From a bacterium (GTDB lineage: Bacteria; Bacteroidota; Ignavibacteria; Kapaibacteriales; UBA7675): a DNA stretch of 64,000 nucleotides. Position numbers and translations under genes: made by a program. This document shows positions 13,335-46,171 of the stretch, piece by piece. The notes under the pieces were generated by a model that saw only the letters and a list, made by a program, of their open reading frames with translations, had not been told where the DNA came from and did not search any database. The stretch lies in contig JAUIKM010000009.1 of the NCBI GenBank assembly GCA_030430495.1, positions 6,250-70,249 on the forward strand, given 5' to 3'. Each line of letters begins with the position of its first letter. The stretch's first letter is position 1.

Positions 13335-13387
13335 CGAGGCCGGGCTTTGTTAACTTCCGGCAGTACATCTGCCGAAATTGCGCCTGC

Positions 13388-13592
13388 GCGCCTGTTTTTG
13401 TCGGCTCACTTTGTTAAACCACCGACCAATTTCAGAGCGCTCACCTGCGGTGGCTTTTATGACTGTTTTGTTTGTCGTGGAGTGTTGTGCCCGGAGGCTG
13501 CGGGACTGTCTTCAAACCCAAAGTCTCCGAGACTTCAACCCGTCCCGCAGCTCACAGTCTTCAAACCCGGTGATAAACAAAAAAATCAAGAA
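13388..13592. mobile_element. MITE/REP-like intergenic element, bounded by an inverted TTTTTGT(T/C) motif and containing a nested 10-bp-stem hairpin.
   Basis: The left end reads CCTGTTTTTGTCGGC. The right end reads CCGGTGATAAACAAAAAAA, which is the reverse complement of TTTTTTTGTTTATCACCGG. Inside is GCUGCGGGAC...GUCCCGCAGC, enclosing AGUCUC-CG-GAGACU. The right arm TTTTGTTTATCACCGGGTTTGAAG matches 56320..56345 at 24 of 25 positions. Confidence 0.5.
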
Positions 13593-13692: not shown

Positions 13693-14655
13693 TTAATCAT
13701 ATCGGCGAAAGAGGTCAAAAGCCGTGTCCAGATCGACGTTGCCGCCGCTGATGACAATGAGAATTCTCTTGCTGCGCAATTGTTCGGCCTGTTTAAGCGC
13801 CACCGCCAGCGAGACCGCGCCCGAGGGTTCAACGATGATGTTGAGGTATTGCCACAACAGACGCATGGCGCGCACGATATCCGCGTCGTCCACCGTGTAA
13901 ATATCGTCGACATTATGCTGGATAATCGGCCAGGTGAGCTCGCCCAGTGAAGTAAGAAGTCCGTCGGCAATTGTGTCGGGTTTAACAGACGGAATGATGT
14001 GACCCGCGCGCAGTGAACGCAGTGCGTCGTCGGCCCCGGTCGGTTCCGCGCCCCAGAGTCGGGCCGTCCTGCCGTCGGCGCGCAGACTCAGCGCCGTGCC
14101 GGAAAGCAGGCCGCCGCCGCCCACCGGAGCAATGACGTGGTTAAACACGTCGTCGTCCTGCAGCGCTTCCCTCAGCGCCGTGGACTGGCCGCAGATAATG
14201 CGTTCGTCGTCGTAGGGATGCACCACGTGCGCGCCCAGGTCCTCCACCAGGCGGGCCACCCCGTCCTCGCGCGCCTGCAGCGTCGGCACGCAGTGATGAA
14301 TATTTGCACCGGCATTGCGCACACGCCGTTGTTTAACTTCCGGTGCATTGTCCGGCATGACGATGTTTGCGTCTATTCCGCGCATCTGCGCCGCCAGAGC
14401 CAGCGCCGCCGCGTGGTTGCCCGAAGAATGAGTGGTCACGCCGCGCTTGGCGGTTTCCTCGTCCAGACCAAAAACGGCATTACATGCGCCGCGAAACTTA
14501 AACGCGCCACAGTGCTGCAGGTTCTCGGGTTTAAAGCGAAGATCGAGGCCCGTGACTTTGTTTAACTCGGCGGAAAACAAAAGCGGCGTGCGCCGCACGT
14601 AAGGTGCTATGCGCTCCGCCGCTTGTTGAAGTTCGTGTTCCTGCGGGAACTGCAT
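13693..14655 (-). CDS. Threonine/serine dehydratase-like PLP enzyme (fold type II, Trp-synthase beta superfamily).
   Basis: The HSSGNHAAALA and GGGGLLSG glycine loop are typical of threonine ammonia-lyase or serine racemase. The start codon overlaps the upstream gene's stop by 1 nt (TAATG). Confidence 0.8.
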   Translation of the reverse strand: MQFPQEHELQQAAERIAPYVRRTPLLFSAELNKVTGLDLRFKPENLQHCGAFKFRGACNAVFGLDEETAKRGVTTHSSGNHAAALALAAQMRGIDANIVMPDNAPEVKQRRVRNAGANIHHCVPTLQAREDGVARLVEDLGAHVVHPYDDERIICGQSTALREALQDDDVFNHVIAPVGGGGLLSGTALSLRADGRTARLWGAEPTGADDALRSLRAGHIIPSVKPDTIADGLLTSLGELTWPIIQHNVDDIYTVDDADIVRAMRLLWQYLNIIVEPSGAVSLAVALKQAEQLRSKRILIVISGGNVDLDTAFDLFRRYD

Positions 14656-17600
14656 TACTGGTTTGCGCCGCCGGATGCCGCGTCCGCCCCGCCTTCCGGC
14701 AGACTGTCGCTCACCGGAAAACCGGCCTTGCGTTTAAGGTCCATGATCTGGAACTCAATTTGCGGAATCAGGGCGTTGAGGTACTGATGCCCGGAGTTGC
14801 GATAGGATTCGATCACCTTCTCGGCTTCCGCGATTGCCTCGCTGTACTTGCCTTCCGACTCGTATTTCTCGATGCGGAGTTGATCGATAATCCCTTGCAG
14901 GCTGGGGTCGTCGCCGCGGCCGATTGATTCGCCGTATTGCTGCCAGTAATCCATTGCGGCGTCGTAGTTGCCGAGCATTGTGCTGGCGTCTGCGGCGATC
15001 TGAGCCGGATTATAGGAGTAGGTATAGCGCTCGCGCGTATTCCAGAGTTGGCGATTTTCGGGTTGCAGCAGAAAGTCGGACGATTCCAGCGCCATCTGCG
15101 CAAAGTGCTCGGCCTGGCGCTCCGCTCCGGCGCGGCTGTAGATTTCGGCTATCTGCATTTCCGTGGCAAAAGGCATCGGGAACATCTTGCTCGAAATGTA
15201 TTTGTCGAGCGTGTCCATGACGGCAGTCGCCTTTTCCTTGTTGCCCTGATTCAGCTGCCAGGTGGCGTAGTTCAGGTAGATATTGCGATAGCTGGGAACC
15301 GGGCGCCGGTTGGATTCGTCGTAGTAGACGTCCGGATTGTTCAGGTTGCGCAGTTTCCAGCCGTAGTGCTGCTGCTTGTGATAGTCGTTGCCCGGAATGA
15401 TGTTCAGCAGCGTCTGGTCCATGATGGCTTCGTTGCAGGCAAAAAAGCCGGACTGGTTGTTTTGTGAAACCGGACAGACGCGCAGACACATTCCCTCCAG
15501 GCGGAAGAAGTCTTCCAGCCCCGCATAGGCGTCGGGACCGACGGACATGGAGTAGTACACCGGACGCTCAAAACGCGTGGTTTTGAGGATGTCCGTCACC
15601 AGCTGGTCCTGCACGCGGATCACGTATTCCTGCGGCTCACTACCGCTGCCGTAGGGATCGCCGATGAGCTGCCAGCTCATTTTACCACTGTTGATAATGG
15701 CGGGATCGTCCGTGTACTGGCGCAGGATGTCGGGCGAAACGCTGACTTCCATCGTGCGCTCGCGGTCGATGTAATATGTCAATGCGACCGGCGAGTTTTC
15801 ATCGCGCGTCTGAATCGAAGCATCGCTGAACGAGAGCGGAATCTGCTCCGCGTTCCACGGTCGTTCGTTTTTCAGCTGATCGACGTACCAGAGGGTGTTG
15901 CCGAGGCTCAGGTTGACGATGCGCACGTCGCGACGCACGCCGGCGACGTCCTGCAGGTACCAGACCGGGAAGGTGTCGTTGTCGCCGTTGGTAAAGACAA
16001 TCGCATTTTCCTCGACGCTCTGCAGAATATTATAGGCGTAGTCGAATGGCAGGTAGTTGCCGCTGCGATCGTGAATCGCCCAACCCTGCCAGGCCATGTT
16101 GGCCGGTACCGCCACAAAGGACAGGATCAGAATGACGGCCACCAAAGGCGCGTAACCCGCCTCGCGCTGACGTCGCAATTGTTCGGCGATAAAATACACG
16201 CCGAGGCCTATCCACATGGCAAAGACCATAAATGAACCGGTGTAGAAATAGTCGCGCTCGCGCGGCTGCGGATTCTGTTGGTTCTGCTGCAGCGCAGCTA
16301 TTATTCCGGTCAGCAGGAAAAGCACAAAGTACGCGATTGCCATGCGCGGATCGCGGAATGCCTGAAAGAAGAGACCCAACAGTCCAAAGAGCAGCGGCAG
16401 CGCAAAGAAGCGCGCCGGAAAGTGCTCGGCGAAGGTGCCGACGCCGTAGAGCCAATAGTCTTCATCCGCCCCGATTTTGGTCCAGGGCGCGTCCTGAATG
16501 TCGCTCACCCGGCCGATAAAGTTCCAGGCGAAGTAACGCCCGTACATGTGGCTGGCCTGGTAGTCGATCAGGTAGTTGAATTCGCCGGCTGCGTTGACCT
16601 GGTTGAAGACAGGTACCGCCAGCACCACGCCGTCTTCGCGCTCAACGCGTTCGCGATCGGGCGGATACCATTCGCCGTAGGCGTTAAAATTGCGCTGAAT
16701 ATGCGGACGCGTGTCGTAGCGACGCGGCCACATAGGCGCATCGCCGTATTGTTCGCGGCCCAGGTAGGACACCAGGCTGCTGAGGTCGTTCGGGTTGTTT
16801 TCGTTCATCGGCGGGTGGGCGTTGGCGCGCAGCAGGATGTGCGTGTAGGTGCTGTAGCCCACAAAAATCAGCACAAAACAGGAGCCGACCACCACCAGGA
16901 GGTTGCGGTTGTTGCGCCAGGACCAGAAGATGAAAACCGCCGTGAAGAGCACCAGGAAACCGGCCACGATGCGGTCCAGTTTGCCGGCGTTGATTGTCCA
17001 GTTGCCGTCGATCATGGCCGGCAGCCACTTGACGATGCCGGGGTAGACCATGCCGAAAGCCGCCACCGCCGCGACGCCCATGACCAGGAAGGACAGCAGG
17101 CCCGGCTCGTTTTTGCGGAAGTATATAATGAGTGCAATCGGGAAGATCGTCAGAACCGCCAGCAGGTGAACGCCGATTGAAAGGCCGATCAGATACGCGA
17201 TCATCAGCAGGTAGCGCTCGTTGCCGGGATTGTCCGCCTCCTCATGCCATCGCATGATCAGCCAGACAATGATCGCCACAAAGAGCGTCGAGGCCGCATA
17301 GACCTCCGACTCCACCGCGTTAAACCAGAAAGTATCTGAAAAGATAAAAGCCGCCGCGCCGATAAAAGACGAGCCGTAGACCATCAGGCCCTCGCCGAAG
17401 TCCTTCGGTTTTTCGCCGCGGAAGTTGTTGATGACTATGACGGAGATCAAATAGAGAAGCAGGACACAAAATGCGCTGGAAAGCACGGAGACCAGGTTGA
17501 TGCGCCAGCCTTCATCGCCGAAGGGCAATAAAACGTGAAACACCTTGCCGACCATCAGAAACAGCGGCGCGCCCGGCGGGTGCGGCACCTGTTGCTGGAT

Positions 17601-17726
17601 GGCCGCGGCCGAAAATTCACCGCAGTCCCAGAACGGGACCGACGGCTGCACCGTGAGCATATAGGTGACGAGCGCCAGAGCAAATACCAGGATGCCAAAA
17701 GCGCGATGGAGAGTCTTTGTATCCAT
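14655..17726 (-). CDS. DUF2723 (TMEM260-type) GT-C fold membrane glycosyltransferase-like protein with a C-terminal TPR region. Paralog 1.
   Basis: From the internal ATG at 17726 the N-terminus is MDTKTLHRAFGILVFALALVTYMLTVQPSVPFWDCGEFSAAAIQQQVPHPPGAPLF, the DUF2723 signature. There are about 11 TM helices, then a large soluble region with TPR-like repeats. The track ORF extends 25 codons further upstream. Confidence 0.8.
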   Translation of the reverse strand: MDTKTLHRAFGILVFALALVTYMLTVQPSVPFWDCGEFSAAAIQQQVPHPPGAPLFLMVGKVFHVLLPFGDEGWRINLVSVLSSAFCVLLLYLISVIVINNFRGEKPKDFGEGLMVYGSSFIGAAAFIFSDTFWFNAVESEVYAASTLFVAIIVWLIMRWHEEADNPGNERYLLMIAYLIGLSIGVHLLAVLTIFPIALIIYFRKNEPGLLSFLVMGVAAVAAFGMVYPGIVKWLPAMIDGNWTINAGKLDRIVAGFLVLFTAVFIFWSWRNNRNLLVVVGSCFVLIFVGYSTYTHILLRANAHPPMNENNPNDLSSLVSYLGREQYGDAPMWPRRYDTRPHIQRNFNAYGEWYPPDRERVEREDGVVLAVPVFNQVNAAGEFNYLIDYQASHMYGRYFAWNFIGRVSDIQDAPWTKIGADEDYWLYGVGTFAEHFPARFFALPLLFGLLGLFFQAFRDPRMAIAYFVLFLLTGIIAALQQNQQNPQPRERDYFYTGSFMVFAMWIGLGVYFIAEQLRRQREAGYAPLVAVILILSFVAVPANMAWQGWAIHDRSGNYLPFDYAYNILQSVEENAIVFTNGDNDTFPVWYLQDVAGVRRDVRIVNLSLGNTLWYVDQLKNERPWNAEQIPLSFSDASIQTRDENSPVALTYYIDRERTMEVSVSPDILRQYTDDPAIINSGKMSWQLIGDPYGSGSEPQEYVIRVQDQLVTDILKTTRFERPVYYSMSVGPDAYAGLEDFFRLEGMCLRVCPVSQNNQSGFFACNEAIMDQTLLNIIPGNDYHKQQHYGWKLRNLNNPDVYYDESNRRPVPSYRNIYLNYATWQLNQGNKEKATAVMDTLDKYISSKMFPMPFATEMQIAEIYSRAGAERQAEHFAQMALESSDFLLQPENRQLWNTRERYTYSYNPAQIAADASTMLGNYDAAMDYWQQYGESIGRGDDPSLQGIIDQLRIEKYESEGKYSEAIAEAEKVIESYRNSGHQYLNALIPQIEFQIMDLKRKAGFPVSDSLPEGGADAASGGANQ

Positions 17727-17839
17727 ACGGTTGCCGATGTCCGATTGAAATTGTTGGCCGTCGGAGAAATGCGCTGCGCGCGTCCGGCCTGTGACACACA
17801 AATCCGTAATTTACCGCTTTGAGCGCAGACTGCAAGGTC

Positions 17840-19039
17840 TTATTTGCGGCTTTCGTCTGCGGCGAGCGTCCATTCCGCTCCGGCGGCGTCTTCCAGCCGC
17901 GTGATCACCTCGGCTGAAATTGCATCACAGACCATATAACCGGCTGCCGTCAGACTGATAACGCCCCCGTCAAAGCGCGCCAGTCCACGATCCTGCAGCT
18001 GCCCGGCATAGTCGCCCAGCGCCGCAACGACGTCGATATCAAATTCGCGCTGAAAATCGGCCGGTACTATTCCGGTGGAGCGCAGGCCGAGAAAAGCGCG
18101 TTCAAACATGCGGTCGCTGCGCGAAAGGCGTTCGGAGTTCGCCAGCGGCAGCACGCCCTCGTTCATCATATCCATATAGCGTTTGAGGTTGCGCACGTTC
18201 CAGTAGCGCGTTTCGTCCAGGTAGCCGTGCGCGGAGGGACCGACGGCAAAGTATTCTTCTCCGTTCCAGTATTTCAGGTTGTGGCGGCAGCGCAGGCCGT
18301 CGCGCGCAAAATTGGATACTTCGTACTGTTCATAACCGCCGTCCGCCAGGATCTGCATAACGTCGTCGTACATTGCGGCGTCCAGGTCTTCATCGGCTTC
18401 CCGCACTTCACCGCGCAGGCGCATGGCGTTGAGCGGCGTACCTTCTTCAAAGATGAGGCTGTAGGCGGAGATGTGTTCGGGGCCCAGTTCCAGCGCGTGC
18501 TTCATGTTTGCCTGCCAGCGCTCGCGCTTCTGGCGCGGCAGCGCAAACATCAGGTCCAGGTTAACATTGTCAAAGCCGGCCGCTCTGGCGGTGGTCAGCG
18601 CGTCAAATGCTTCGGTTCGCGAATGAATGCGCGAGAGGAATTTCAGATCGTCTTCGTAAAAGGACTGCACGCCGAAGCTTAATCTGTTGACGCCGTGTTC
18701 GCGGTAGCCGCTCAGACTCTCAACTGTTACCGTCCCGGGATTGCACTCCATTGTCAACTCGACATCCGGAGTCAACACAAGGTGTTCGCGTACGTTGTTT
18801 AATATGTTTCCGATCTGTTCGGGCCGCAGCAGCGAGGGCGTTCCCCCGCCAAAAAATACGGTATCGACCGTCCGCTGACCTTCCGGCAGTTTGTTTAAGC
18901 GCAGATCGATCTCACGCAGCAGCGCGTTAACAAATGCATCGATCATCGAGGTATTTTCGATGGAATAGAAGTCGCAATAGATGCACTTTTTATCGCAGAA
19001 CGGAATATGCAGATAGAGTCCGCGTTGCACGCCATTTCC
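17840..19039 (-). CDS. hemW: Radical SAM HemW/HemN-like protein (heme chaperone / oxygen-independent coproporphyrinogen oxidase family).
   Basis: LYLHIPFCDKKCIYCDF is the CxxxCxxC radical-SAM cluster motif, and GGGTPSLL is present. The track ORF (to 19297) adds an S/Q/R/K-rich, non-protein-like 86-aa extension with no internal Met. The likely start is the GTG at 19039 (VQRGLYLHIPFC), preceded by AGGGAAA. Confidence 0.75.
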   Translation of the reverse strand, partial: GNGVQRGLYLHIPFCDKKCIYCDFYSIENTSMIDAFVNALLREIDLRLNKLPEGQRTVDTVFFGGGTPSLLRPEQIGNILNNVREHLVLTPDVELTMECNPGTVTVESLSGYREHGVNRLSFGVQSFYEDDLKFLSRIHSRTEAFDALTTARAAGFDNVNLDLMFALPRQKRERWQANMKHALELGPEHISAYSLIFEEGTPLNAMRLRGEVREADEDLDAAMYDDVMQILADGGYEQYEVSNFARDGLRCRHNLKYWNGEEYFAVGPSAHGYLDETRYWNVRNLKRYMDMMNEGVLPLANSERLSRSDRMFERAFLGLRSTGIVPADFQREFDIDVVAALGDYAGQLQDRGLARFDGGVISLTAAGYMVCDAISAEVITRLEDAAGAEWTLAADESRK

Positions 19040-19683
19040 CTGTTTAATAACACGCCGGATTTTTCTCCGGCGACTTACACGGATGTTCCTGAGGGACTGA
19101 CACGGTTGAGCGCTGTAAAACGTGTAGCGGCTTTGTGGTTGGCGGGATTGAGGCCTGTCAGAAAGCGCTGTGCGCTTTTGGTTCTCCTGCCTGATTGACG
19201 CTGAACGACTTGAGGCTTGAGCGCTTCGCCCCTTCGTTCCACTCTGTGGCTTGCTTTTTTCTTTTTGTTTGCCGGCGGGTGTCGAACTTGGAGACATCGG
19301 GACCGCAAAAGGGTACGCCGGCCGTTGGTCGATTTTTTTCGATCAGATCAAATTTTTGTTTCGCTCGCTCTTATCGGCGAATTCAGCCTGCAAGGCGGAC
19401 ATCTCCGGCACGCGTAATGTAGATTTTTCACCTCGGCCATGTTTTCGGTTTGTTTCATTTGGCAAACGTTCGCTATGTTCCCACAAATTTCAAAGACATC
19501 TAAAAGAATCGCGCAGCACATCCACTCCCCAACACTCTGCATTTATGTATCCGATTCTTACTGGTCTCTGAATAACAGAAATCCGCAAAAACCACTGCCG
19601 TGAACCGCAAGGTTCAAACCCACTCGGTTGCGGAGAGTACATACGCCTTATGGATGGTGCACTGTTCAGTCCCGGCGTAAAGA

Positions 19684-19707
19684 TGAACCAAACAGACGTG
19701 TTTGGTT
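19684..19707. promoter_or_regulatory. 24-bp perfect palindrome GAACCAAACAGACGTGTTTGGTTC (10-bp arms, 4-bp spacer), a candidate dimeric TF operator.
   Basis: Read directly from the sequence, about 77 bp upstream of the 19784 ATG, inside an unusually AT-rich 740-bp intergenic region. Confidence 0.5.
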
Positions 19708-19783
19708 CGGCGACAAGTAAAAACCAAGGCCGTTTATCGCGATTTATTCGCTCAGTCATCCCAAACACTGGGAGTATTTCAAC

Positions 19784-20722
19784 ATGATGAAACAAATCTA
19801 TCAACGCTCATTGATAACGAGCACGCTTTTGACGACCGTTATGATTCTGCTGTTCTCAAGTTTAACCGCCAACGCACAATGCCTGCCGGACTGCCGGCAA
19901 TCGCCGTGGGGACCGCCGCAGACGAGAAATATCATCTTGTTTCATGAGTGTTTTGGCTGTGCTATAGAAGTGACTTTTGTCACAAGACGTGCTTGCGGAG
20001 CATTCGATGACATGCAGATAACTGAAGTAGAATTGGTTTCCGGCTGTGGTGGATGTACGCTGCAAGAAGTATTCGAAGCGGCATTTGAAGCACTGATTAT
20101 GGATGAACCTCGAATTTTTGAAGACCCTGATAATGGAGAGTGTGCAAATAACTGGCGTATTTCTTCAGCCGGCTGCTTTAACGAATGGTTCGTGACATTT
20201 CCGGAAGGAGGATCCGGTACATTCCTCGTGCCCTGCGACGGTGAAACCTGTTGTTTGACCCCGCTTCGGGTTTGTCGCGACAACAATGGAAATATTGAGT
20301 CAATCACACCTCTTGGTGGCCCCTTTGGCGGTGGTGATTGCGCCCAGTCTACTCCTGTATTTGGCGAGGGCCCCTGTTTTACGACCTGCGAATTTGACGG
20401 ATTTACTCTGGGCAAAGGTTCTCTACCTGGTGGCCGAGTTACCAACGATCCGGCACATGCCATTGAGCATGCGATTGCCATGCCCAATCCGGCAACCGGC
20501 ACCACGGTTGAATTCGAACTCGACGTAAACGCAGCCGGCCAGGCACATTTGGCGATTTATGACATGCAGGGGCGCATCGTCAAAGAAACATCTGTGAGCC
20601 TTGCCAATGGCAAAGCGCGCGTCGCCGTCGACGTCGCCGATTTGACACCGGGCTCCTACGTTTATGAACTGACGGTGGCCGGGCGCAAACTCGTCAACGA
20701 CAAACTTGTGATCAGCAAATAA
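19784..20722 (+). CDS. Secreted cysteine-rich protein with a Por/T9SS C-terminal sorting domain.
   Basis: N-terminal signal peptide MMKQIYQRSLITSTLLTTVMILLFSSLTANA. More than 25 Cys in about 200 aa. The C-terminal roughly 80 aa (NPATGTTVEFELDVNAAGQAHLAIYDMQGRIVKE...GSYVYELTVAGRKLVNDKLVISK) match the T9SS CTD pattern. Confidence 0.7.
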   Translation: MMKQIYQRSLITSTLLTTVMILLFSSLTANAQCLPDCRQSPWGPPQTRNIILFHECFGCAIEVTFVTRRACGAFDDMQITEVELVSGCGGCTLQEVFEAAFEALIMDEPRIFEDPDNGECANNWRISSAGCFNEWFVTFPEGGSGTFLVPCDGETCCLTPLRVCRDNNGNIESITPLGGPFGGGDCAQSTPVFGEGPCFTTCEFDGFTLGKGSLPGGRVTNDPAHAIEHAIAMPNPATGTTVEFELDVNAAGQAHLAIYDMQGRIVKETSVSLANGKARVAVDVADLTPGSYVYELTVAGRKLVNDKLVISK

Positions 20723-20760
20723 TATACTGAATCGTTATTTTATCTTTTTCTCAGAATACT

Positions 20761-22236
20761 ATGCAACGCAATTCAGCCGATTACGGTTGTTGGCTGCAAG
20801 AAGTAGGAGGGATCGCATCACCGGTCCCTCCTACCTTTATTGATACTTTCAATCGGACTTCAATGAAGCCCGCACGGACGACAGACAAAATCATGCACAA
20901 TTTCAAATCGCCCCTTCGCCTCAACATCGGGAAATTTTTCGCTTGTTTCTTTATCAACAGTATGTTCGTAGTAGTCTGCGCCATTGCGCAGCCACACTAC
21001 TGGGAGACTGTCGATCATATCCCAAGCCTTGATTACGAGGACATTGATTGTGCCGACAGCAATTCAATAATGGCGGTTGGCAACTGGGCCAACGGAGCGA
21101 GGCCGACAATCCGTAGAACGACGGATGGCGGCAAGACCTGGACCTCAGTAATTGAGAATGAAGTCGAGCGCGATGAAAATGGGAATGCAATCAGTTTTCC
21201 AATTCGTTTTATTGCGATTTCCCATCCTTCACCAGATATTGCCATCGTCGCTGCGGACAGTGGATTGATTTTGAGAACCTATGATCAAGGAAGTACCTGG
21301 GACACTCTGAATTTTGGCTTTGATGAGAGATTTCGCGACGTCGCGGTGACGCCCGCCGGCTCCGGAATTGCCACGACTATCAATGACCGGATATTTCTTA
21401 CAAATGATAGTGGAAAAACCTGGGAAGAAATCGAGTCGCCCGGAATAGCTTCTCAACGTGACATTGCATTTTACGACGGCATTGACGTTGTCCTGAAAGT
21501 ATTCACTGGTCCTGAAAACGGTGTTGGAGTCCGAACTAAAAAACTGGGAGAAAAGCAATGGAACGCCTTTGTAGCTCCAAACGAGCCTGGTGAAATGTTT
21601 TTCGCCACACCCGAAATTGGTTGGCTGGTTGGTTTTGAAACGACCGAAGGCAGTATTGGGAACGACCTCATTTACTCCACCACAGACGGAGGTAAAAACT
21701 GGACAACATTGCTTCGTGAACAAATAGAACAACCCTATGGATTGTACAGCATTGCCTTCGCCGACGAAAATCACGGTATAGCAGGCGGCTACTACGGTAA
21801 AATTCTTCGCACCAGTGACGGCGGTAAAAACTGGATTGTGGATACATCCGATATCAGAGAGTCCATTTTCCATGTGGTCATGAAGGTTTCATACCCCTAC
21901 ATAGATCTGGCTTATGCTGTCAGCCAAAACGGCCACATCGTGCGTTACAAACCGACGACCACATCGGTGGACGACGACACTCCGCGACGTCAAAACGAAC
22001 CCGTCACGCTCTACCCCAATCCGGCCACGCAGACAATCAATATCAAACTGCCGAAGCACTGTTTAAACTCGACAGTTGAACTCTTTGACGCCGCAGGCAG
22101 AAAGCTGCGGACACGGAACGCGCGGTCCGCCCGACAGATTGCTCTCGACGTCAATGGTCTGGAAGCGGGACTTCACATTGTCAGGCTCTCCGGCTGCGGC
22201 GAGTCATATACGCAGACGGTGATGATTGCCCGTTAA
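20761..22236 (+). CDS. Secreted BNR/Asp-box (Ycf48-like) beta-propeller repeat protein with a T9SS C-terminal sorting domain.
   Basis: Repeated S/T-x-D-x-G-x-T/N-W motifs: TTDGGKTWTSV, TYDQGSTWDTL, TNDSGKTWEEI, STTDGGKNWTTL, RTSDGGKNWIV. The C-terminus YPNPATQTINIKL...VELFDAAGRKL...GLHIVRL has the T9SS CTD pattern. The likely start is an internal Met (MKPAR, or MHNF at 20893) before the hydrophobic signal segment. Confidence 0.7.
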   Translation: MQRNSADYGCWLQEVGGIASPVPPTFIDTFNRTSMKPARTTDKIMHNFKSPLRLNIGKFFACFFINSMFVVVCAIAQPHYWETVDHIPSLDYEDIDCADSNSIMAVGNWANGARPTIRRTTDGGKTWTSVIENEVERDENGNAISFPIRFIAISHPSPDIAIVAADSGLILRTYDQGSTWDTLNFGFDERFRDVAVTPAGSGIATTINDRIFLTNDSGKTWEEIESPGIASQRDIAFYDGIDVVLKVFTGPENGVGVRTKKLGEKQWNAFVAPNEPGEMFFATPEIGWLVGFETTEGSIGNDLIYSTTDGGKNWTTLLREQIEQPYGLYSIAFADENHGIAGGYYGKILRTSDGGKNWIVDTSDIRESIFHVVMKVSYPYIDLAYAVSQNGHIVRYKPTTTSVDDDTPRRQNEPVTLYPNPATQTINIKLPKHCLNSTVELFDAAGRKLRTRNARSARQIALDVNGLEAGLHIVRLSGCGESYTQTVMIAR

Positions 22237-22322
22237 ACTTCTTTCAAAGGCGCAGGGTGTACAGATCTACGTAATTTTCTCAGAGATTGAAGAATCTGCC
22301 GTTTTTGGCACGACAGAAAAAT

Positions 22323-22351
22323 GAGCTGTGTGCCCTAAGGGCACACAGCTC
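22323..22351. terminator. Bidirectional intrinsic-terminator-like hairpin between convergent genes.
   Basis: GAGCUGUGUGCCC-UAA-GGGCACACAGCUC, a perfect 13-bp stem with a 3-nt loop, flanked by T-rich runs on both strands (tacgtaattttc appears on both sides). Confidence 0.6.
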
Positions 22352-22421
22352 ATACGTAGTTTTACGTAATTTTCAGTCTTTTCGCCGCAGCGACCAACGC
22401 TCAACCCAAAATCCCGCCCGC

Positions 22422-25400
22422 TCAGGCGTCGGGAAGTGACAAACCAGCCGCCGAGTCTCCCGGCGCCCCGGCTTTGAACTGGAGCTGCCGCATATGCTGC
22501 TCCAACTGCGGAATAATGCCGTTCAGGTATGCCGAACCCGAAGCGCGGTACTCAGTGATAATCTTCTGAATTTCCGCGATGGCCGCTACCACATCGCCCT
22601 CCGCCGTGTGGCGCTCGATGCGCAGCTGATCGATGACCGCTCGCAGGCCGGGGTCGTCGGCCCGGCCGATTGAAGCGCCGTAATCGCGCCAGTACTGCAT
22701 CGCTTCGTCGTAGCGACCGAGTATGGTCACCGCCTCGGCGGCAATCTGCATCGGGTTGTACGAATACGTGTACAGTTCGCGCGTGCCCCACAGATCCCGG
22801 TTGTTTAACAGATGTTCCGAGGACTTCAGTGCCATCTCCGCGAATTCGCGCGCACGCTCCGTTGCTCCCGCGCGCAGGTACATGTCGGCTGTTTGCAGCT
22901 CGACGGCAAAAGGCATCGGGAACATCTCCGTAGAAATGTAGTCGTTCATTGTGTTGAGCACCTGCTGCGCCTTGTCGTTTTTGCCGCGAGCAATCAACCA
23001 GTTGGCGTAGTTCATGTAGATATTGCGATAGCTCGGAATCGGACGACGGTTGGACTCATCGTAGTAAACATCCGGGTTGTTTAAGTTGCGCAGCTTCCAG
23101 CCGGGATGCGGTTCGGTGAAGAACTCATCACCCTCAACGATATTCATGATTGTCCGGTCCATCATCTCTTCACTACAGGCGTACAGATCGCCGCGATTGT
23201 GCTGCGGTACCGGACAAACGCGCATAGCCATGCCCTCCATCCTGAAGTGATCCTGCAAACCTGCGTAGGCGTCTGGACCGACAGACAGGGAGAAGTACAC
23301 GGGCCGCTCAAATCGAATAACTTCGATTATTTCGCGGATCAACTGATCCTGAACACGGAACACGTACTCGCCTTCACCGTGATTAAACTCCTCACCCTCA
23401 AAGAGCCAGCTCATCTTCGGCGTCTGCAACAAGGCCGGGTCGTCCGTGTATTGCGCCATGATTTCGCGGCGCACCGGCACTTCAACCTGACGGGCCTTGT
23501 CGATGTAGTACGACAGCGCCTCGCGGGCGTTGGGATCGTCAACCTGGATTGACTCATCGCTGAAACGCAGTGGAATGGCCGCAGCGCCCCACGGTTCGCT
23601 GTTTTTCAGTTGATTGACGTACCAGGGGGTATTGCCGAGGCTCAGGTTAACAATGCGTACGTCGCGACGCACGCCGGCAACGTCCTGCATGTACCAGACC
23701 GGAAATGTGTCGTTGTCGCCGTTGGTAAACACAATCGCATTTTCGTCAACGCTCTGCAGGATATTGTAGGCGTAGTCAAAGGGCATGTAGTTGCCGCTGC
23801 GATCGTGCACTTTCCACCCCTGGATGGCCATGCTCGCCGGCGCGGCGACAAAACTCACCAGCAGGACGCAGGCCACAATCGGCAGGGCCATGCGTTTATT
23901 GATGCTGCGTGCGCGTTCCGCCAGATAATAAACGCCGATTCCGATCCACATGGCAAAGATCATGAATGAACCGGTGTAAAAGTAATCGCGCTCGCGCGGC
24001 TGCGGATTCTGTTGGTTCTGCTGCAAGGCAACGATTATCCCCGCCAGAATAAACAGAATGAAAAATGACGCGGCGGCTTTTGGATCGCGCCGTGCATGAT
24101 AAAACAAACCGAGCAGGCCCAACAGAAAAGGCAAAGCAAAAAAGTTAATCGGAAAATAGTCCGCGAACAGTCCGACGCGATAATTCCAATAGTCCACATC
24201 TGCGCCCGGATGCACCCAGGGAGAATCCTGTATGTCGCCGACGCGCCCGATAAAATTCCAGGCAAAATAGCGCCAGTACATGTGGTCGGCCTGGTAGCTG
24301 AGCAGGTAGTTCAACTCCGCCCGGGTATTGATGTCGCTGTTCTCGTAGTCGACCACGCTCAACGCCATACCGTCGCGACGAACAACGCGTTTGCGCGCCG
24401 GCGGCTGCCATTCGCCATAGGCGTCAAAGTTGCGCTGAATCTGCTTGCGCGTATCGTGGCGACGCGGCCAGAAAGGAGCCTGGGGATATTGTTCGCGCCC
24501 CAGATAGTCCGCCAGGCCGCTGAGGTCGCCGGGATTGTTTTCATTCATCGGCGGATTGGCATTTGCGCGCAGCAGAATGTGACCGTACGTGCTGTAGCCG
24601 AGAACCGTCAGAATAAAACAGGCGCTGACGAGCGTCAACAGCCCCGACCGGCGACGGTATGCCCAGATAAACAGCACCAACGCAGCGCTTAATATTGAAT
24701 ATGCCAGGAGCCGCAACAGGGAGCTGTCCACCGCCATCCACTCGTTCGCTTCCGTCTTGAACGGCGCGTGACCGTCCATCATGCCCGGCAGCCACTTGAC
24801 CATACCGGGATAAATCACAAAAAAGACGGCTACAGCTATTGCGCCCATTGTGATAAATGTTAACGGTTTGAATTCGTACTTGCGGAAGTACACGATCATC
24901 GCAATCGGAAATATCGTCAGCAGAGCCAACAGGTGAACGCCGATCGACAATCCAAGCAGATAGGCAATGAGGAGCAAATAGCGCTCGTGCCCCGCCTCGT
25001 CGGCAGCTTGATGCCAGCGTAAAATCAGCCAGACAGTCAGCGCGACGAACAAAGTCGAAGCGGCATAAACCTCCGATTCCACTGCGTTGAACCAAAAAGT
25101 ATCGCTGAATGTCAACGAACATGCGCCGACAAACCCCGCGCCGTACACCGAGAGCGCCTCCGTGAATTCGCGCGGCCGGCCGCCGCGGAAATTGTCAATC
25201 ACCAGGACAATTATCAGGTACAACAGCAGCGCTATCACCGCACTTGCACAGACGGAAACGAGATTAACACGCCAGGCCGACTCGCCGAAGGGGATCAGCA
25301 AATCAAATGTTTTACCGACCATCAGAAAAAGCGGCGCGCCCGGCGGATGCGGCACCTGCTGCTGTACGGCCGCCGCGGTAAATTCCCCGCAATCCCAGAA

Positions 25401-25493
25401 CGGAACAGTATCCTGTACCGTCAGCAGGTAGGTGCAGAACGCCAGGATAAAGGTCAGAAATGCAAAAGATCGATGCAGTAATTTTACGTTCAT
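22422..25493 (-). CDS. DUF2723 (TMEM260-type) GT-C membrane glycosyltransferase-like protein with a C-terminal TPR region. Paralog 2.
   Basis: N-terminus MNVKLLHRSFAFLTFILAFCTYLLTVQDTVPFWDCGEFTAAAVQQQVPHPPGAPLF. Collinear with the 14655..17726 paralog along the whole length, with the same TM block and the same soluble repeats. Confidence 0.8.
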   Translation of the reverse strand: MNVKLLHRSFAFLTFILAFCTYLLTVQDTVPFWDCGEFTAAAVQQQVPHPPGAPLFLMVGKTFDLLIPFGESAWRVNLVSVCASAVIALLLYLIIVLVIDNFRGGRPREFTEALSVYGAGFVGACSLTFSDTFWFNAVESEVYAASTLFVALTVWLILRWHQAADEAGHERYLLLIAYLLGLSIGVHLLALLTIFPIAMIVYFRKYEFKPLTFITMGAIAVAVFFVIYPGMVKWLPGMMDGHAPFKTEANEWMAVDSSLLRLLAYSILSAALVLFIWAYRRRSGLLTLVSACFILTVLGYSTYGHILLRANANPPMNENNPGDLSGLADYLGREQYPQAPFWPRRHDTRKQIQRNFDAYGEWQPPARKRVVRRDGMALSVVDYENSDINTRAELNYLLSYQADHMYWRYFAWNFIGRVGDIQDSPWVHPGADVDYWNYRVGLFADYFPINFFALPFLLGLLGLFYHARRDPKAAASFFILFILAGIIVALQQNQQNPQPRERDYFYTGSFMIFAMWIGIGVYYLAERARSINKRMALPIVACVLLVSFVAAPASMAIQGWKVHDRSGNYMPFDYAYNILQSVDENAIVFTNGDNDTFPVWYMQDVAGVRRDVRIVNLSLGNTPWYVNQLKNSEPWGAAAIPLRFSDESIQVDDPNAREALSYYIDKARQVEVPVRREIMAQYTDDPALLQTPKMSWLFEGEEFNHGEGEYVFRVQDQLIREIIEVIRFERPVYFSLSVGPDAYAGLQDHFRMEGMAMRVCPVPQHNRGDLYACSEEMMDRTIMNIVEGDEFFTEPHPGWKLRNLNNPDVYYDESNRRPIPSYRNIYMNYANWLIARGKNDKAQQVLNTMNDYISTEMFPMPFAVELQTADMYLRAGATERAREFAEMALKSSEHLLNNRDLWGTRELYTYSYNPMQIAAEAVTILGRYDEAMQYWRDYGASIGRADDPGLRAVIDQLRIERHTAEGDVVAAIAEIQKIITEYRASGSAYLNGIIPQLEQHMRQLQFKAGAPGDSAAGLSLPDA

Positions 25494-25753: not shown

Positions 25754-26659
25754 TTACTCGACAATGGTTCCGATTCGGCCAAAATCAATTTCGCCCCGGT
25801 CGTCGCGCGACCAATACACCAGGACGGCCTTGCCGAGAATTCTGTCGCATGCCACGCATCCCCAATAGCGCGAATCGTAGCTGTTGTCGCGATTATCGCC
25901 TACAACAAAGACGTAGTCGTGCTCGAATGTATAGCTGTCGCAGTATTCGCCGTTGATGTACACCTTAGCTTCGCTGAGGTTCACGCGATTACCGGCGGAA
26001 ATGATTAATTCTTTCCATGCTTCGATATTCCTATCGTCTATCTTGATCGTCAGCCCGCGGTAAGGCACGATCAATCGTTCGCGTGGCGCACCCTCCGGCA
26101 CGGCCAGATGCATGCGCTGTGCGCGCATGAGGAATGCACCGCCGAGCTTCGGCAGGTCGAGCTGTTGATTTGTCGTCAGATTCGTCAGGCGGCGACCGTC
26201 AAAGTGGACCGAATCGCCGGGCAGCCCCCAGGCGCGTTTGACGTAGCGCTCCAGCGGCGCGTCCCTGAGCCCATAAGCCGGAAAGTCAAAAACGATGACG
26301 TCGTCGTGCTCGACGTCAAAAGTTGAAAATCGCCAGTCGAGCGGGTTGTCCGCGTCGGTGAAAGGTATCGTGCGCGGCAGCCCCGCCGAATACGCCAGTT
26401 TGTTGACGACAACAAAATCGCCGATGTGCAGCGTCGGCTGCATCGAGCCGCTCGGAACCGAGAAAATGTCGAGCACAAAAATCTTTAACATCAGGCCCAC
26501 CGCCAGCGCCCAGATCAGCGCCTCGACGATGTCGCGAAGCCCGATGGAATCGGACTTGGGCCCGGGAGCCTTGTCGGAATCCGACGCCGGGCCGCTCTCA
26601 TCTTTCCGCTCCGACGGATCGGGCGCTTCGGCGCCGTTATGTTGGCTGGATTCGCTCAT
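25754..26659 (-). CDS. lepB: Signal peptidase I (S26 family), paralog 1 of 3.
   Basis: Catalytic Ser box PSGSMQPTL, Lys box KRAWGLPGD, and box E VVGDNRDNSYDSRYWG. N-terminal acidic, low-complexity extension followed by a TM segment. Confidence 0.85.
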   Translation of the reverse strand: MSESSQHNGAEAPDPSERKDESGPASDSDKAPGPKSDSIGLRDIVEALIWALAVGLMLKIFVLDIFSVPSGSMQPTLHIGDFVVVNKLAYSAGLPRTIPFTDADNPLDWRFSTFDVEHDDVIVFDFPAYGLRDAPLERYVKRAWGLPGDSVHFDGRRLTNLTTNQQLDLPKLGGAFLMRAQRMHLAVPEGAPRERLIVPYRGLTIKIDDRNIEAWKELIISAGNRVNLSEAKVYINGEYCDSYTFEHDYVFVVGDNRDNSYDSRYWGCVACDRILGKAVLVYWSRDDRGEIDFGRIGTIVE

Positions 26660-26686
26660 GAACTCGCTGATTATTCTGCTGCCGGT

Positions 26687-27598
26687 CTATTCCACGGAAG
26701 TCATAAAGCGATCCGACCGCGTCTGCCCCGTTACCGGATCGACCGAGTAGTAGACGAGGAAAGGACTGCCCACGACGTCGTCAAGCGCCACAAATCCCCA
26801 GTAGCGGCTGTCGAGACTGTTGTCGCGGTTGTCGCCCATCATGAAAAGATAGTCGCGCTCGACAGTGTAGTTCATCACTGGGCGGCCGTCGATCACCCAA
26901 TTTTCGTTGAGAAAATCGATATTGACGGCGTGCCCCTCACGCGCGATGAACACCTGCCATCTGTTGATGGTCTCTTCACTCAGGTCGAGCGTCACGACGT
27001 CGCCTGCGGCCGGGACGCGCAGCGGACCGTATTCGGTGGCCGACCATTCGCTGCCCTTGGGGAAAATCCTTCCCGCACCGGCCGGCATCCACGGATTGTC
27101 TTCGCGGTAGGCGTGTTCCGGCAGCGCGTCTTTGAGGCCGTTGATGTACAAATCGTTATGGCGCATCTCCACCGTGTCTCCGGCAATAGCCACACAGCGC
27201 TTCAGGTAGTAGTTGAATTGTCCCGCCTCGATCTGATCGCGATCGCCGGGATATTCAAATACCACCAGGTCGCCGCGGTCGGGTTCATCCCAGGAAGGCA
27301 GAAGCGGGATCCAGGGCGCTTCCACGCCGAGAACGGGAATGGTGCGTGGCGTGGTCAGCCGGTAACGCGCTTTGTTGACGAGTACGTAGTCGCCCGCAAG
27401 CACGGTGCCTTCCATCGAGCCCGTTGGGAGGAAAAAAGTGGACACGGAGCAGAAGTAGAGAAAACCCAAAATACACGACGCGGCTATCAGACCATAGATT
27501 CCGCGCGATCGCCTGGGCGTTTTATCCGAAGCCTTGTCAATTCGGGCCATACAAGCGATTCTCGTTGCGTGGTCGCCGGAACACCGGCCGTTGATCAC
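26687..27598 (-). CDS. lepB: Signal peptidase I (S26 family), paralog 2 of 3.
   Basis: PTGSMEGTVLAGDYVLVNK, KRCVAIAGD, MMGDNRDNSLDSRYWG. An alternative start at the Met at 27550 is possible. Confidence 0.85.
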   Translation of the reverse strand: MINGRCSGDHATRIACMARIDKASDKTPRRSRGIYGLIAASCILGFLYFCSVSTFFLPTGSMEGTVLAGDYVLVNKARYRLTTPRTIPVLGVEAPWIPLLPSWDEPDRGDLVVFEYPGDRDQIEAGQFNYYLKRCVAIAGDTVEMRHNDLYINGLKDALPEHAYREDNPWMPAGAGRIFPKGSEWSATEYGPLRVPAAGDVVTLDLSEETINRWQVFIAREGHAVNIDFLNENWVIDGRPVMNYTVERDYLFMMGDNRDNSLDSRYWGFVALDDVVGSPFLVYYSVDPVTGQTRSDRFMTSVE

Positions 27599-27666
27599 CG
27601 CATGTTCGGCGCGCGCCCACCTGAATCAGACCGGCGCGCTCAGCATTTCACCTTGTGATTTTTAAC

Positions 27667-28584
27667 TCAGTCGATGCCGGTAAAAATCCGGTCCAGTCGC
27701 AGGCGCGACCACTTTTCTGCCAGAGGATATTCCTGATTGCTGTTCTTCGGGCCTACTTCCCAGGACCAATACACAAACATCGGTGTGCCGACGATATTGT
27801 CAACCGGAACAAAACCCCAGAAGCGGCTGTCGAGGCTGTCATCGCGATTGTCGCCCATGCCGAAAACGTAGTCGCGCTCAACTGTATACGTCTGCGCCTC
27901 CACCCCGTCGATGCGCCACGTCCCCGTCGCCTGGTCGTAATCCACGTCGTGACCCTCGCGCTGAATAAAGATATTCCAGCGATTGAACGTGTCGGGATCG
28001 GCATCCAGCGTCACCACATCGCCTTCCTTCGGCACCGTAATCGGGCCGTAATTCGACGGCGACCAGCTGGTTCCACGCGGAAACAGGCTGCCAGGGCGGT
28101 AGTGTTTGTCCCCGCTGAAATTCGCCAGCTCGGGGTTTTCCTGCAGACTGCCGTTCACGTACAACTTGTTTTCGCGCACTTCCACTTCATCGCCGCCGAC
28201 AGCTACGCAGCGTTTGAGATAGTAGGTGAATTCTTTGGATTCAACCATGTCGCGATCGCCCGGAAAGATAAACACAATCACGTCGTTGCGCTCCGGAGCC
28301 CAGATCGGCGCCGTCTTCCAGAACGGCAGGGGCTCGTTCAGAAAAGGAACGATCTGCGGCGTGGAAGGACCGTACACAAATTTGTTTACAAAGACAAAAT
28401 CACCGGCGAGCACCGTGCCCTCCATGGAGCCGGTCGGTACGACGAAGGACGCTACCAGCGCGCCGTTGACGAACATGACGATGATGATGGCGCCGATGAT
28501 TGTTTTAATCCAGGAGGTCAGGCCGGCCACAAAACCGACTTTTTCATTTGAAGGTCGTTTGCCCTCCGACTTTGGTCTCGCCAC
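27667..28584 (-). CDS. lepB: Signal peptidase I (S26 family), paralog 3 of 3.
   Basis: PTGSMEGTVLAGDFVFVNK, KRCVAVGGD, GMGDNRDDSLDSRFWG. Located immediately downstream of lepA, the canonical lepA-lepB arrangement. Confidence 0.85.
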   Translation of the reverse strand: MARPKSEGKRPSNEKVGFVAGLTSWIKTIIGAIIIVMFVNGALVASFVVPTGSMEGTVLAGDFVFVNKFVYGPSTPQIVPFLNEPLPFWKTAPIWAPERNDVIVFIFPGDRDMVESKEFTYYLKRCVAVGGDEVEVRENKLYVNGSLQENPELANFSGDKHYRPGSLFPRGTSWSPSNYGPITVPKEGDVVTLDADPDTFNRWNIFIQREGHDVDYDQATGTWRIDGVEAQTYTVERDYVFGMGDNRDDSLDSRFWGFVPVDNIVGTPMFVYWSWEVGPKNSNQEYPLAEKWSRLRLDRIFTGID

Positions 28585-30561: not shown

Positions 30562-30638
30562 CAAGTATTGCCTTGTCCCAATCGGGTCACGCCGCATCTC
30601 CGTCCGTTTAATCCGGTGCGGTCGTACATTGTCTGTGT

Positions 30639-37697: not shown

Positions 37698-38300
37698 TCA
37701 GAGTAGTACTTTAACGACGTAAAATCCAAGCACCAGAAGTACGATGAACACGATAGAGAGAATATCGAAATATTTATCGATAAATACCTTGATCTGTGCT
37801 CCGAAGATTCGAATCAAGCCCCCAACGAGGAAAAATCTCCCCGCACGACCGATCGTAGAAATCAGAATAAACGGCAAAATCGGCATCTCGAAGGCGCCTG
37901 AGGCGATTGTAGCCACTTTGTACGGTATGGGCGTAAACGCCGCTCCGAGAAGCAGAAGGTTACCGTACTCGTCGTACATCGCCTGGAATTCCTCCCACTT
38001 GGATTCCAGGCCGTACATCGCGATAACAGGATTTCCTACGACATCCATCAGTCCGAATCCAATGAGATAACCGATTACCCCGCCAACCAGAGACCCCAAG
38101 GTGCACCACAACGCCGCCTGTAACGCCTTGTCAGGCCTTGAGACAGCGATGGCGATAAGCAGTACGTCCGGTGGAATCGGAAATACAGAAGATTCGGCCA
38201 ATGCCAAAAAGAACAAAGCATACATTGCGGACGGTTTTTCCGCAAAACTTTCCATCCAGGCTTTCAGACTTCGCATCCAGCGAAAAAACGCTTTCACCAC
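37698..38300 (-). CDS. DedA/YqaA-family (VTT domain) membrane protein.
   Basis: 200 aa with about 5 TM helices. It has the ESSVFPIPPDVLLIA motif characteristic of the DedA/SNARE-associated family. Confidence 0.75.
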   Translation of the reverse strand: MVKAFFRWMRSLKAWMESFAEKPSAMYALFFLALAESSVFPIPPDVLLIAIAVSRPDKALQAALWCTLGSLVGGVIGYLIGFGLMDVVGNPVIAMYGLESKWEEFQAMYDEYGNLLLLGAAFTPIPYKVATIASGAFEMPILPFILISTIGRAGRFFLVGGLIRIFGAQIKVFIDKYFDILSIVFIVLLVLGFYVVKVLL

Positions 38301-44713: not shown

Positions 44714-44757
44714 TTTCCGCGGCAAGCAGATATTCTCACGATTCTTTGCCTCCGAAC

Positions 44758-46161: not shown

Positions 46162-46171
46162 CATGACCTTC

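Follow-up and report, generated by a model that had tools for sequence, protein, structure and literature searches.

We asked what is made by two closely similar membrane-protein genes in a 64,000-nucleotide stretch of a Kapaibacteriales genome (Bacteroidota; Ignavibacteria; GenBank assembly GCA_030430495.1, contig JAUIKM010000009.1, positions 6,250 to 70,249; hereafter the window), and whether their products could glycosylate exported proteins. An original prediction, drawn from the DNA letters, had described them as two DUF2723 paralogs of the TMEM260 type beside type IX secretion system (T9SS) cargo genes. Both open reading frames (ORFs) proved real, each encoding 1023 aa (paralog 1 and paralog 2, Table 1), and the proteins are 63% identical over 1015 aa. 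The open frame of paralog 1 extends past its ATG at 17726 to a TTG at 17801. As judged from sequence, both genes encode inner-membrane glycosyltransferases of the GT-C fold that belong to the TMEM260 family (PF11028, GT117), with a predicted active site facing the periplasm.

Human TMEM260 works in the endoplasmic reticulum (ER), where it O-mannosylates the IPT domains of plexins, cMET and RON. Its activity as a protein O-mannosyltransferase was demonstrated in 2023, when it was placed in the new CAZy family GT117 (PMC10214176). The PF11028 (TMEM260-like) model matched residues 34-206 of both bacterial proteins, with 208.8 bits for paralog 1 and 204.6 bits for paralog 2 against a Pfam gathering cutoff of 24.2 bits, and database homologs additionally carry PF28495 ('TMEM260_2'). 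NCBIfam models gave no match to either paralog. The sole solved structure related by sequence is that of human TMEM260 (9RQL/9RQM/9RQN), which was matched with E 6e-22 by a single sequence and with E 1.3e-24 by a 51-sequence profile. The match falls into two stretches, the N-terminal GT-C module on the one hand and the last transmembrane (TM) helices with the start of the soluble domain on the other. No Pfam match to PF02366, PMT_2 (PF13231) or MIR was found in either paralog at E <= 0.01, and the resemblance to the PMT/POMT enzymes (GT39) is at the level of the fold only; with neither PMT nor MIR domains, the paralogs are, by domain content, not members of GT39. The TMEM260-type assignment of the original prediction is therefore borne out, both by PF11028 scores far above the cutoff and by the conserved TMEM260 residues described below. 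The family label as such was already known, as Pfam and NCBI annotation calls these proteins TMEM260-like or 'protein O-mannosyl-transferase family'. In the literature we found no functional study of any bacterial DUF2723/PF11028/GT117 member, including PGN_0192, PG2144 and TF2012, in agreement with the earlier statement that the bacterial members are essentially uncharacterised.

Both paralogs begin with a TM helix that is followed by VPFWDCGEF(S/T)AAA(I/V)QQQVPHPPGAPLF, and the N-terminal signature that had been noted for the pair, VPFWDCGEF...VPHPPGAPLF, is indeed present in each. The predicted block of 11 TM segments also agreed with our analysis, which gave 11 hydropathy peaks in residues 1-552. 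In the AlphaFold (AF2) model (predicted local distance difference test score 87.1, predicted template-modelling score 0.87), the TM block closes at about residue 552 with its last helix and leaves a soluble C-terminal part of ~470 aa (553-1023). Residues 553-800 of the model form an α/β 'palm' domain, with strands and helices alternating at 576-750 according to DSSP. Paired helices resembling tetratricopeptide repeats (TPR) are confined to ~804-1001, about 200 aa, and the C-terminus is matched by TPR proteins. The TPR-like tail of roughly 550 aa that had been proposed thus has to be shortened and divided into two domains. From the odd number of hydropathy peaks, palm and TPR would both lie on the non-cytoplasmic side of the membrane.

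The catalytic mechanism of TMEM260 has been described in a 2026 cryo-EM preprint (10.64898/2026.03.17.711096), which made it possible to compare individual residues. Dolichyl-phosphate-mannose (Dol-P-Man) is held by D52 and H67 of a sugar-recognition motif, by R264 and Y267 of a donor-loading loop and by R355 of TMH10; the catalytic base is D441 in a lumenal Rossmann-like 'palm', and D441A is inactive; an extended acceptor peptide is gripped by the TPR domain, where it is bound by an asparagine ladder formed by N602, N638, N642 and N680 (10.64898/2026.03.17.711096). In both paralogs, hidden Markov model (HMM) alignment places D52 on D34 and H67 on H49. It also aligns G440-D441, and with it the catalytic base, with G581-D582, which lies in FTNGDNDTFP (human LLRGDLPGN), a 10-residue invariant motif. 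R264 and Y267 correspond to R324 and Y327, human FLR264EEY267G and bacterial YLGR324EQY327G having R-E-x-Y-G in common, and the E490-R491 pair, located where a late TM helix starts, probably mirrors human E354-R355. The human numbering of R264 and Y267 was verified on a recovered TMEM260 fragment (P0246). A homolog search with a human TMEM260 fragment as query gave only fragments of at most 343 aa, and the TMEM260 sequence recovered extends no further than residue 481.

The mapped residues are invariant in the 51-sequence alignment, and in a set of 84 sequences with mutual identities of only 30-60% their conservation is at least 93%; R324, Q326 and Y327 each reach at least 93% in the latter set. 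Conservation peaks around the mapped motifs and falls toward the TPR, the same decay as reported for TMEM260, and only three partly conserved asparagine columns (796, 805 and 812) are seen in the 84 sequences. The donor-binding residues (D34, H49, R324, Y327 and probably E490-R491) and the palm aspartate D582 are thus conserved in both copies. For the original prediction, a first periplasmic loop lacking its acidic residue in both paralogs was a result that would speak against it. D34 (with E37) is present and invariant in both and, since both keep the mapped residues, this test does not refute the assignment. Apart from R355, for which R491 is a candidate counterpart, every testable feature of TMEM260-like membership was found. 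The possibility that one paralog is a dead or pseudo-enzyme was also considered and was ruled out: all invariant residues are kept in both copies, and neither looks inactive because both hold all of the mapped residues.

From these comparisons we favour, with somewhat better than even confidence, the reading that the two proteins are periplasmic protein O-glycosyltransferases with a TMEM260-like mechanism, using a polyprenyl-phosphate-hexose donor and Ser/Thr of exported proteins as acceptor. A cytoplasmic GT2 enzyme would load a hexose, most likely mannose, onto polyprenyl monophosphate, and the lipid-linked sugar would then be flipped to the periplasm. There it would be bound by the TM core through D34, H49, R324, Y327 and E490-R491, while the C-terminal TPR would hold an extended stretch of a Sec-exported protein. 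The palm would set a Ser/Thr beside D582, which would deprotonate the hydroxyl, and transfer of the sugar would be inverting. Probably the two copies would serve different acceptors, or would work as a pair.

We looked for the remainder of such a pathway around DUF2723 genes in other genomes. The family is large and FCB-centred: a one-genome-per-species scan gave at least 598 matches, those listed including Kapaibacteria, Ignavibacteria, Chlorobiaceae, Rhodothermales, Balneolales, Calditrichaceae, KSB1, Neomarinimicrobiota and many Bacteroidia, and among 1.84 billion cluster representatives (50% identity) searched with a profile, 18,305 matched at E <= 0.001, 9,667 at <= 1e-10 and 2,066 at <= 1e-30. 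A homolog search with a Bacteroidia-type member (L058) returned only near-identical Prolixibacteraceae proteins. Neighbours were counted over 81 loci (designated by L numbers). In the Kapaibacterium loci L004 and L035, a GT2 gene of 245-249 aa directly follows DUF2723 (249 aa in L004, where the order is lepA, lepB, lepB, hemW, DUF2723, GT2); the best NCBIfam relatives of these GT2 proteins are polyprenyl-P-sugar synthases (PpgS, ArnC, AglJ and dolichyl-P-hexose transferase), all far below their cutoffs (67-74 bits for PpgS, whose curated cutoff is 370). Orthologs of the Dpm1-like GT2 of the window, at 58-61% identity, are found 4-7 kb downstream of DUF2723 and co-directional with it in L032, L036, L045 and L078. 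A flippase-like gene (TIGR00374/LPG_synthase_TM) comes directly after DUF2723 in L027, L032, L036, L045 and L050. A further GT2 of ~345 aa, with C-terminal TM segments, abuts DUF2723 in L036, L040, L042, L045, L059 and L065; its similarity to rhamnosyltransferases is weak and below cutoff, and other GT2 families, such as PgaC, score better. The rmlD gene is near DUF2723 in L032, L036 and L042.

One such cluster lies in a Calditrichaceae metagenome-assembled genome (L036, 8786..17712), where the GT2 with weak rhamnosyltransferase similarity, DUF2723, the TIGR00374 flippase-like gene, DUF4837, an uncharacterised gene, PfkB, RmlD, a Dpm1-like GT2 and accA follow one another co-directionally; L032 and L045 are similar. 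The content of this cluster would suit the synthesis of a lipid-linked mannose/rhamnose unit. More generally, these neighbours make up the well-known combination of GT2, flippase and GT-C through which lipid-monophosphate sugars serve periplasmic glycosylation, although the association is not universal.

In the window itself, the proposed donor synthase has to be judged more cautiously. The original prediction had recognised a Dpm1-like synthase, and this was correct: among solved structures, the GT2 protein is closest to 5mlz, the dolichol-P-mannose synthase of Pyrococcus (E 3.5e-27), with ArnC (1e-8) and the GtrB-like sll0501 (5e-4) far behind, and it is a candidate polyprenyl-phosphate-mannose (hexose) synthase. 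Its suggested role as donor supplier for the paralogs is plausible, but weaker than first proposed. In its favour, GT2 genes resembling polyprenyl-P-sugar synthases adjoin DUF2723 elsewhere; against it, the gene belongs to a separate envelope-glycan/polysaccharide cluster (~39350..63850), flanked by a WbaP-like phosphoglycosyltransferase (PGT; 52176..53861) and a Wzy_C protein (54718..56226). The synthase has rival consumers because this cluster contains another GT-C of the PMT_2 type (44503..46161).

The position of the pair in the genome was informative about its origin. On the minus strand, the window reads lepA, three signal peptidase I genes (lepB), paralog 2, hemW, paralog 1 and a dehydratase-family gene. 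The series lepA, lepB, lepB, hemW, DUF2723 is found on one strand in nine Ignavibacteria- or Kapaibacteria-type loci (L004-L006, L008-L012 and L017), at least hemW is directly upstream of DUF2723 in three Chlorobiaceae loci (L021, L023 and L031), and hemW is the commonest DUF2723 neighbour (14/81 loci). Because the array of the window equals this conserved array with one extra copy, paralog 1 is the positional ortholog of the ancestral single hemW-linked copy of Ignavibacteria, Kapaibacteria and Chlorobiaceae. Leaving aside the orthologs in one close relative, the next-closest proteins found are at most 56% identical to the paralogs, compared with 63% between the two. Since the paralogs are closer to each other than to other proteins found, the duplication is specific to the lineage of the window, within an old housekeeping array. 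What had been called an odd operon context is therefore inherited synteny with hemW. Translational coupling of hemW to paralog 1, also proposed, does not hold, as 113 nt separate the hemW stop from the ATG of paralog 1. The overlap of paralog 1 with the downstream dehydratase gene is real: its stop codon runs into the dehydratase start (TAATG), as it also does in L081.

Locus L081 belongs to a close relative (GCA_964445695.1) that has the identical paralog array at ~91% nucleotide and 97-98% protein identity; its ortholog of paralog 2 is 97% identical and in the same position. This genome was decisive for the T9SS genes. The original prediction was right that the paralogs flank two T9SS cargo genes, and both genes do have C-terminal sorting domains; the functional hint that it took from them fails because they sit on an insertion that is absent from the relative. 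In blastn comparison, 3131 bp in the window correspond to 171 bp of intergenic sequence in L081. The GC content of the inserted segment is 0.49-0.53 compared with ~58%, making it the lowest-GC part of the window. As L081 has the array without the cargo genes and the segment is low in GC, the cargo genes came by recent insertion into an intergenic region and are outside the glycosyltransferase unit. No convincing target-site duplication or terminal repeats were found around the insertion, and no homolog of either cargo protein was found in any of 80 related loci. A second indel separates the two genomes downstream of the dehydratase (window ~13335..13438, L081 19102..20796), where L081 has a DJ-1/PfpI gene and a 203-aa ORF (~1.7 kb) that are absent from the window.

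A wider setting for these enzymes is offered by the general O-glycosylation of Bacteroidota. According to a 2025 review, mannose, rhamnose and glucuronic acid form a reducing-end core that the general O-glycans have in common, deletion of the LFG locus leaves only hexose and deoxyhexose, and the genes for the core machinery lie at other places in the genome, with core flippase, oligosaccharyltransferase (OTase) and ligase undiscovered (PMC12871550). Published proteome tables contain inner-membrane DUF2723 proteins of ~124 kDa from Porphyromonas gingivalis (PGN_0192/PG2144), Prevotella intermedia (BWX39_09045) and Tannerella forsythia (Tanf_01470/TF2012), and these three proteins are themselves O-glycosylated, in P. 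intermedia at DTL823 and DSI844 (PMC8729774, PMC10897501, PMC8550257). DUF2723 is thus present and expressed in three species with a proven system. Among the proteins expressed in P. intermedia is, in addition, one with the annotation dolichyl-phosphate mannosyltransferase (supplementary proteome tables). In the window, each paralog holds two D[ST][AILVMT] motifs, at 838 and 1007 in paralog 1 and at 28 and 1013 in paralog 2.

Several observations weigh against the assignment of the pair as periplasmic protein O-glycosyltransferases. At the level of residues, region-restricted hhalign paired REQYG with REEYG collinearly, but weakly (E 0.0058, probability 6%); full-length hhalign against TMEM260 aligned only the N-terminal 189 columns, and the loop region alone, as single sequence or as profile, gave no TMEM260 match among PDB sequences. 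The HMM places TMEM260 R355 on Y493, which is not an arginine, the invariant E490-R491 lying two residues upstream. The paralogs are also ~320 aa longer than TMEM260 and contain a ~140-aa periplasmic insert (302-442). As for the donor, 28 kb lie between the Dpm1-like GT2 of the window and the nearer paralog, this GT2 may serve other clients in its own cluster, a GT2 resembling polyprenyl-P-sugar synthases occurs within 10 kb of DUF2723 in only 6/81 loci, and the identity of the sugar as mannose is pure inference. As for the acceptor, a TPR domain is no proof of a protein client, and a scan of the window proteins found no TMEM260-type IPT sequon. Exported and cytoplasmic window proteins could not be told apart by their numbers of D[ST][AILVMT] motifs. 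The common DUF2723 neighbours in other lineages, which include polysaccharide deacetylase (11 loci), GT4 (10), GT2 (8) and GT9 heptosyltransferase (6) genes as well as methyltransferase genes, would also fit a lipopolysaccharide or polysaccharide acceptor. They lend themselves to a different explanation, in which the GT-C transferases act on a non-protein periplasmic acceptor (lipid A/core, polysaccharide or glycolipid), like ArnT or the mycobacterial arabinosyltransferases, and the TPR is a scaffold or binds partners. This explanation keeps some weight because the GT2 association is not universal and such neighbours are found elsewhere, but we consider it unlikely. The sole solved sequence relative O-mannosylates proteins, the aspartate with which the TMEM260 palm activates Ser/Thr is invariant here within an invariant motif, and palm and TPR together form the peptide-gripping module of TMEM260. 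That DUF2723 has been kept downstream of signal peptidase I genes in nine loci fits Sec-exported clients, although it may be inherited gene order.

The remaining alternatives concern the partners and the reach of these enzymes. Tandem DUF2723 pairs have arisen independently and been retained at least five times, in the window with L081 (63% identity), L027 with L032 (55-58%), L045 (54%), L066 (75%) and L077 (35%), which suggests repeated selection for a second copy. Together with the retention of every invariant residue in both copies, this would suit a reading in which the paralogs are subunits of an obligate heterodimer, as are Pmt1-Pmt2 and POMT1-POMT2. We regard such an arrangement as improbable: most loci have a single DUF2723 copy, the TMEM260 structures are described for a single chain (10.64898/2026.03.17.711096), the terminator-like hairpin behind paralog 2 points to transcription of the two in separate units, and the divergence of the paralogs is even, with 60-70% identity in every domain and no sign of an asymmetric interface. 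Dedication of the enzymes to the two adjacent T9SS cargo proteins has only adjacency in this one window to recommend it. With the cargo genes on a low-GC insertion that is missing from a 91%-identical relative with the same array, without homologs in the related loci, on the opposite strand and separated by a terminator-like hairpin, this reading is in effect refuted and its probability close to negligible; a T9SS-specific role was accordingly ruled out on the location of the cargo genes in the insertion. Extending the favoured reading beyond the window, the DUF2723/TMEM260-like family might start the general O-glycosylation of Bacteroidota/FCB by placing a reducing-end mannose or mannose-rhamnose core from a polyprenyl-phosphate carrier onto exported Ser/Thr, with the Dpm1-like GT2 making the donor and the TIGR00374-type flippase-like protein flipping it. 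This is a tentative proposal, with the chances well against it. Its special case, in which the family attaches the conserved core (reducing-end mannose with a rhamnose branch) to D-(S/T)-x sites from a lipid-linked mono- or disaccharide, is doubtful. Still, its presence in the proteomes and the gene clusters together put the family forward as a concrete candidate for the core transferase that is being sought, given that the OTase of the core is still undiscovered (PMC12871550), that the DUF2723 inner-membrane glycoproteins and the annotated mannosyltransferase are expressed as described above, and that L032, L036, L042 and L045 variously join DUF2723 with a weakly rhamnosyltransferase-like GT2, a flippase-like gene, rmlD and a Dpm1-like GT2. 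On the other hand, the suggestive clusters are from Calditrichota/KSB1-type genomes, outside the lineages in which the glycosylation system has been demonstrated, the T. forsythia glycan is linked through galactose although the gene is present, the accepted model has an undecaprenyl-diphosphate-linked (Und-PP-linked) glycan and a PglL-like OTase, and the family extends beyond the lineages with reported D-(S/T)-x enrichment.

Coordinates of the features are collected in Table 1.

Table 1. Features of the window that bear on the paralog pair (positions are those of the window).
Feature	Coordinates	Strand	Basis or remark
Paralog 1, TMEM260-like GT-C glycosyltransferase	14655..17726	minus	1023 aa, 116 kDa
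Sugar-recognition motif PFWDCGEF...HPPG, residues 31-52, paralog 1	17571..17636	minus	phmmer/hmmsearch alignment to 9rql
Candidate donor-loading-loop motif YLGREQYG, residues 321-328, paralog 1	16743..16766	minus	R-E-x-Y-G pattern
PQPRERDYFY, residues 486-495, start of late TM helix, paralog 1	16242..16271	minus	probable TMEM260 E354-R355 counterpart
FTNGDNDTFP, residues 578-587, periplasmic α/β palm, paralog 1	15966..15995	minus	HMM alignment
Paralog 2, TMEM260-like GT-C glycosyltransferase	22422..25493	minus	1023 aa, ~116 kDa; between third lepB and hemW
Sugar-recognition motif, paralog 2	starts 25380..25403	minus	equivalent of paralog 1 motif
Candidate donor-loading-loop motif, paralog 2	24486..24506	minus	counterpart of YLGREQYG
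PQPRERDYFY counterpart, paralog 2	23976..24005	minus	late TM helix start
FTNGDNDTFP, paralog 2	23700..23729	minus	counterpart of paralog 1 motif
lepA	28759..30597	minus	Pfam LepA_C; upstream of paralog 2
Three tandem signal peptidase I genes (lepB)	27667..28584, 26687..27598, 25754..26659	minus	Pfam Peptidase_S26
Terminator-like hairpin, 16+16-nt perfect palindrome, then T run	22321..22353		69 nt past paralog 2 stop
hemW (radical S-adenosylmethionine heme chaperone)	17840..19030	minus	TIGR00539 326.8 bits, cutoff 205.4; 396 aa
Serine/threonine/β-hydroxyaspartate dehydratase-family gene, pyridoxal-phosphate-dependent	13693..14655	minus	PF00291 258 bits
Low-GC insertion, ~3 kb, with two T9SS C-terminal-domain cargo genes	19146..22275	plus	blastn of L081 against window
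T9SS cargo gene 1	19784..20722	plus	Por_Secre_tail match; no other recognisable domain
T9SS cargo gene 2	20761..22236	plus	Por_Secre_tail match; BNR/Ycf48-like β-propeller
Dpm1-like GT2, candidate polyprenyl-phosphate-mannose (hexose) synthase	53896..54636	plus	PF00535
GT2-phosphoglycosyltransferase fusion	39350..41329		glycan cluster
Wza-like exporter	58775..60586		glycan cluster

Some gene boundaries in the array required correction or comment. The hemW ORF as listed (17840..19297, 485 aa, ATG at 19297) is over-extended by a 5' stretch of ~89 codons without HemW similarity; the true start is likely the GTG at 19030, and the gene of the relative likewise encodes 396 aa. The NCBIfam matches of the dehydratase are all under their equivalog cutoffs. 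The hairpin has a 15-pair stem with 9 GC pairs and a minus-strand tail of TTTTCTG, and its position suggests that it separates a unit of lepB and paralog 2 from a unit of hemW and paralog 1. A plus-strand ORF at 26639..27658, for which Pfam gave no match, probably only shadows the middle lepB gene. In addition to the genes already named, the glycan cluster holds GT2 and GT4 genes, a UDP-GlcNAc 2-epimerase, a UDP-sugar dehydrogenase and an NAD-dependent epimerase/dehydratase-family gene; four of its ORFs (48553..49653, 49936..50670, 50728..52344 and 57138..58775) gave no Pfam match. A membrane protein with a DedA/VTT domain (37698..38300) adjoins accA and the GT2-PGT fusion. The DedA/VTT family has been implicated in the recycling of undecaprenyl phosphate, which would bear on lipid-linked sugar pathways.

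Comparison with characterised systems shows how far the likeness goes. The paralogs share with TMEM260 the PF11028 domain, the GT-C core, the Asp/His motif, the R-E-x-Y-G loop, probably the E-R pair of a late TM helix, the G-D base of an α/β palm and the TPR. They differ from it in length (1023 aa versus 707 aa), in the ~140-aa insert between TM helices, in a larger palm with extra β-strands (~650-750) and in a longer TPR. They are further distinguished by a bacterial inner-membrane location, where the carrier would be bacterial polyprenyl phosphate and not dolichyl phosphate, and by the lack of an IPT-type sequon in the window proteins. With the PMT/POMT enzymes (GT39, including the actinobacterial, Sec-coupled Pmt) they have in common that the first extracytoplasmic loop carries an acidic residue and, by inference for the window proteins, a lipid-monophosphate-mannose donor made by a Dpm1/Ppm1-type GT2 and unfolded exported acceptors. 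In contrast to those enzymes, they are without PF02366, PF13231 and MIR, and their acceptor-activating base would lie in the soluble palm and not in loop 1. In the cadherin O-mannosyltransferases TMTC1-4 (GT105), too, a lumenal TPR that selects protein clients comes after the membrane GT-C core, but sequence similarity is not detectable and the TMTCs lack a Rossmann-like palm with a catalytic Asp.

Other resemblances are in pathway logic. The GtrA/GtrB/GtrC and ArnC/ArnE-F/ArnT systems combine a GT2 synthase, a flippase and a GT-C, as do the gene neighbours in L004, L035, L036, L045 and others; those systems, however, modify O-antigen or lipid A, and the window does not have the three genes in one cluster. 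Bacteroidota O-glycosylation (LFG; D-(S/T)-(A/I/L/V/M/T)) shares periplasmic glycosylation of Ser/Thr and a reducing-end mannose, and DUF2723 is expressed in three of its model species, whereas the current model of that system is en bloc transfer from an Und-PP-linked glycan.

Taken together, the window is unremarkable within its clade; its pair of family members had been recognised correctly, and the T9SS neighbours are incidental. The comparison shows that most of the catalytic apparatus validated by mutagenesis in TMEM260 is conserved from human to FCB bacteria, and that DUF2723 genes tend to travel with genes resembling polyprenyl-P-sugar synthases and flippases. If the family does initiate general O-glycosylation, the two copies of the window would be initiating enzymes with different client ranges.

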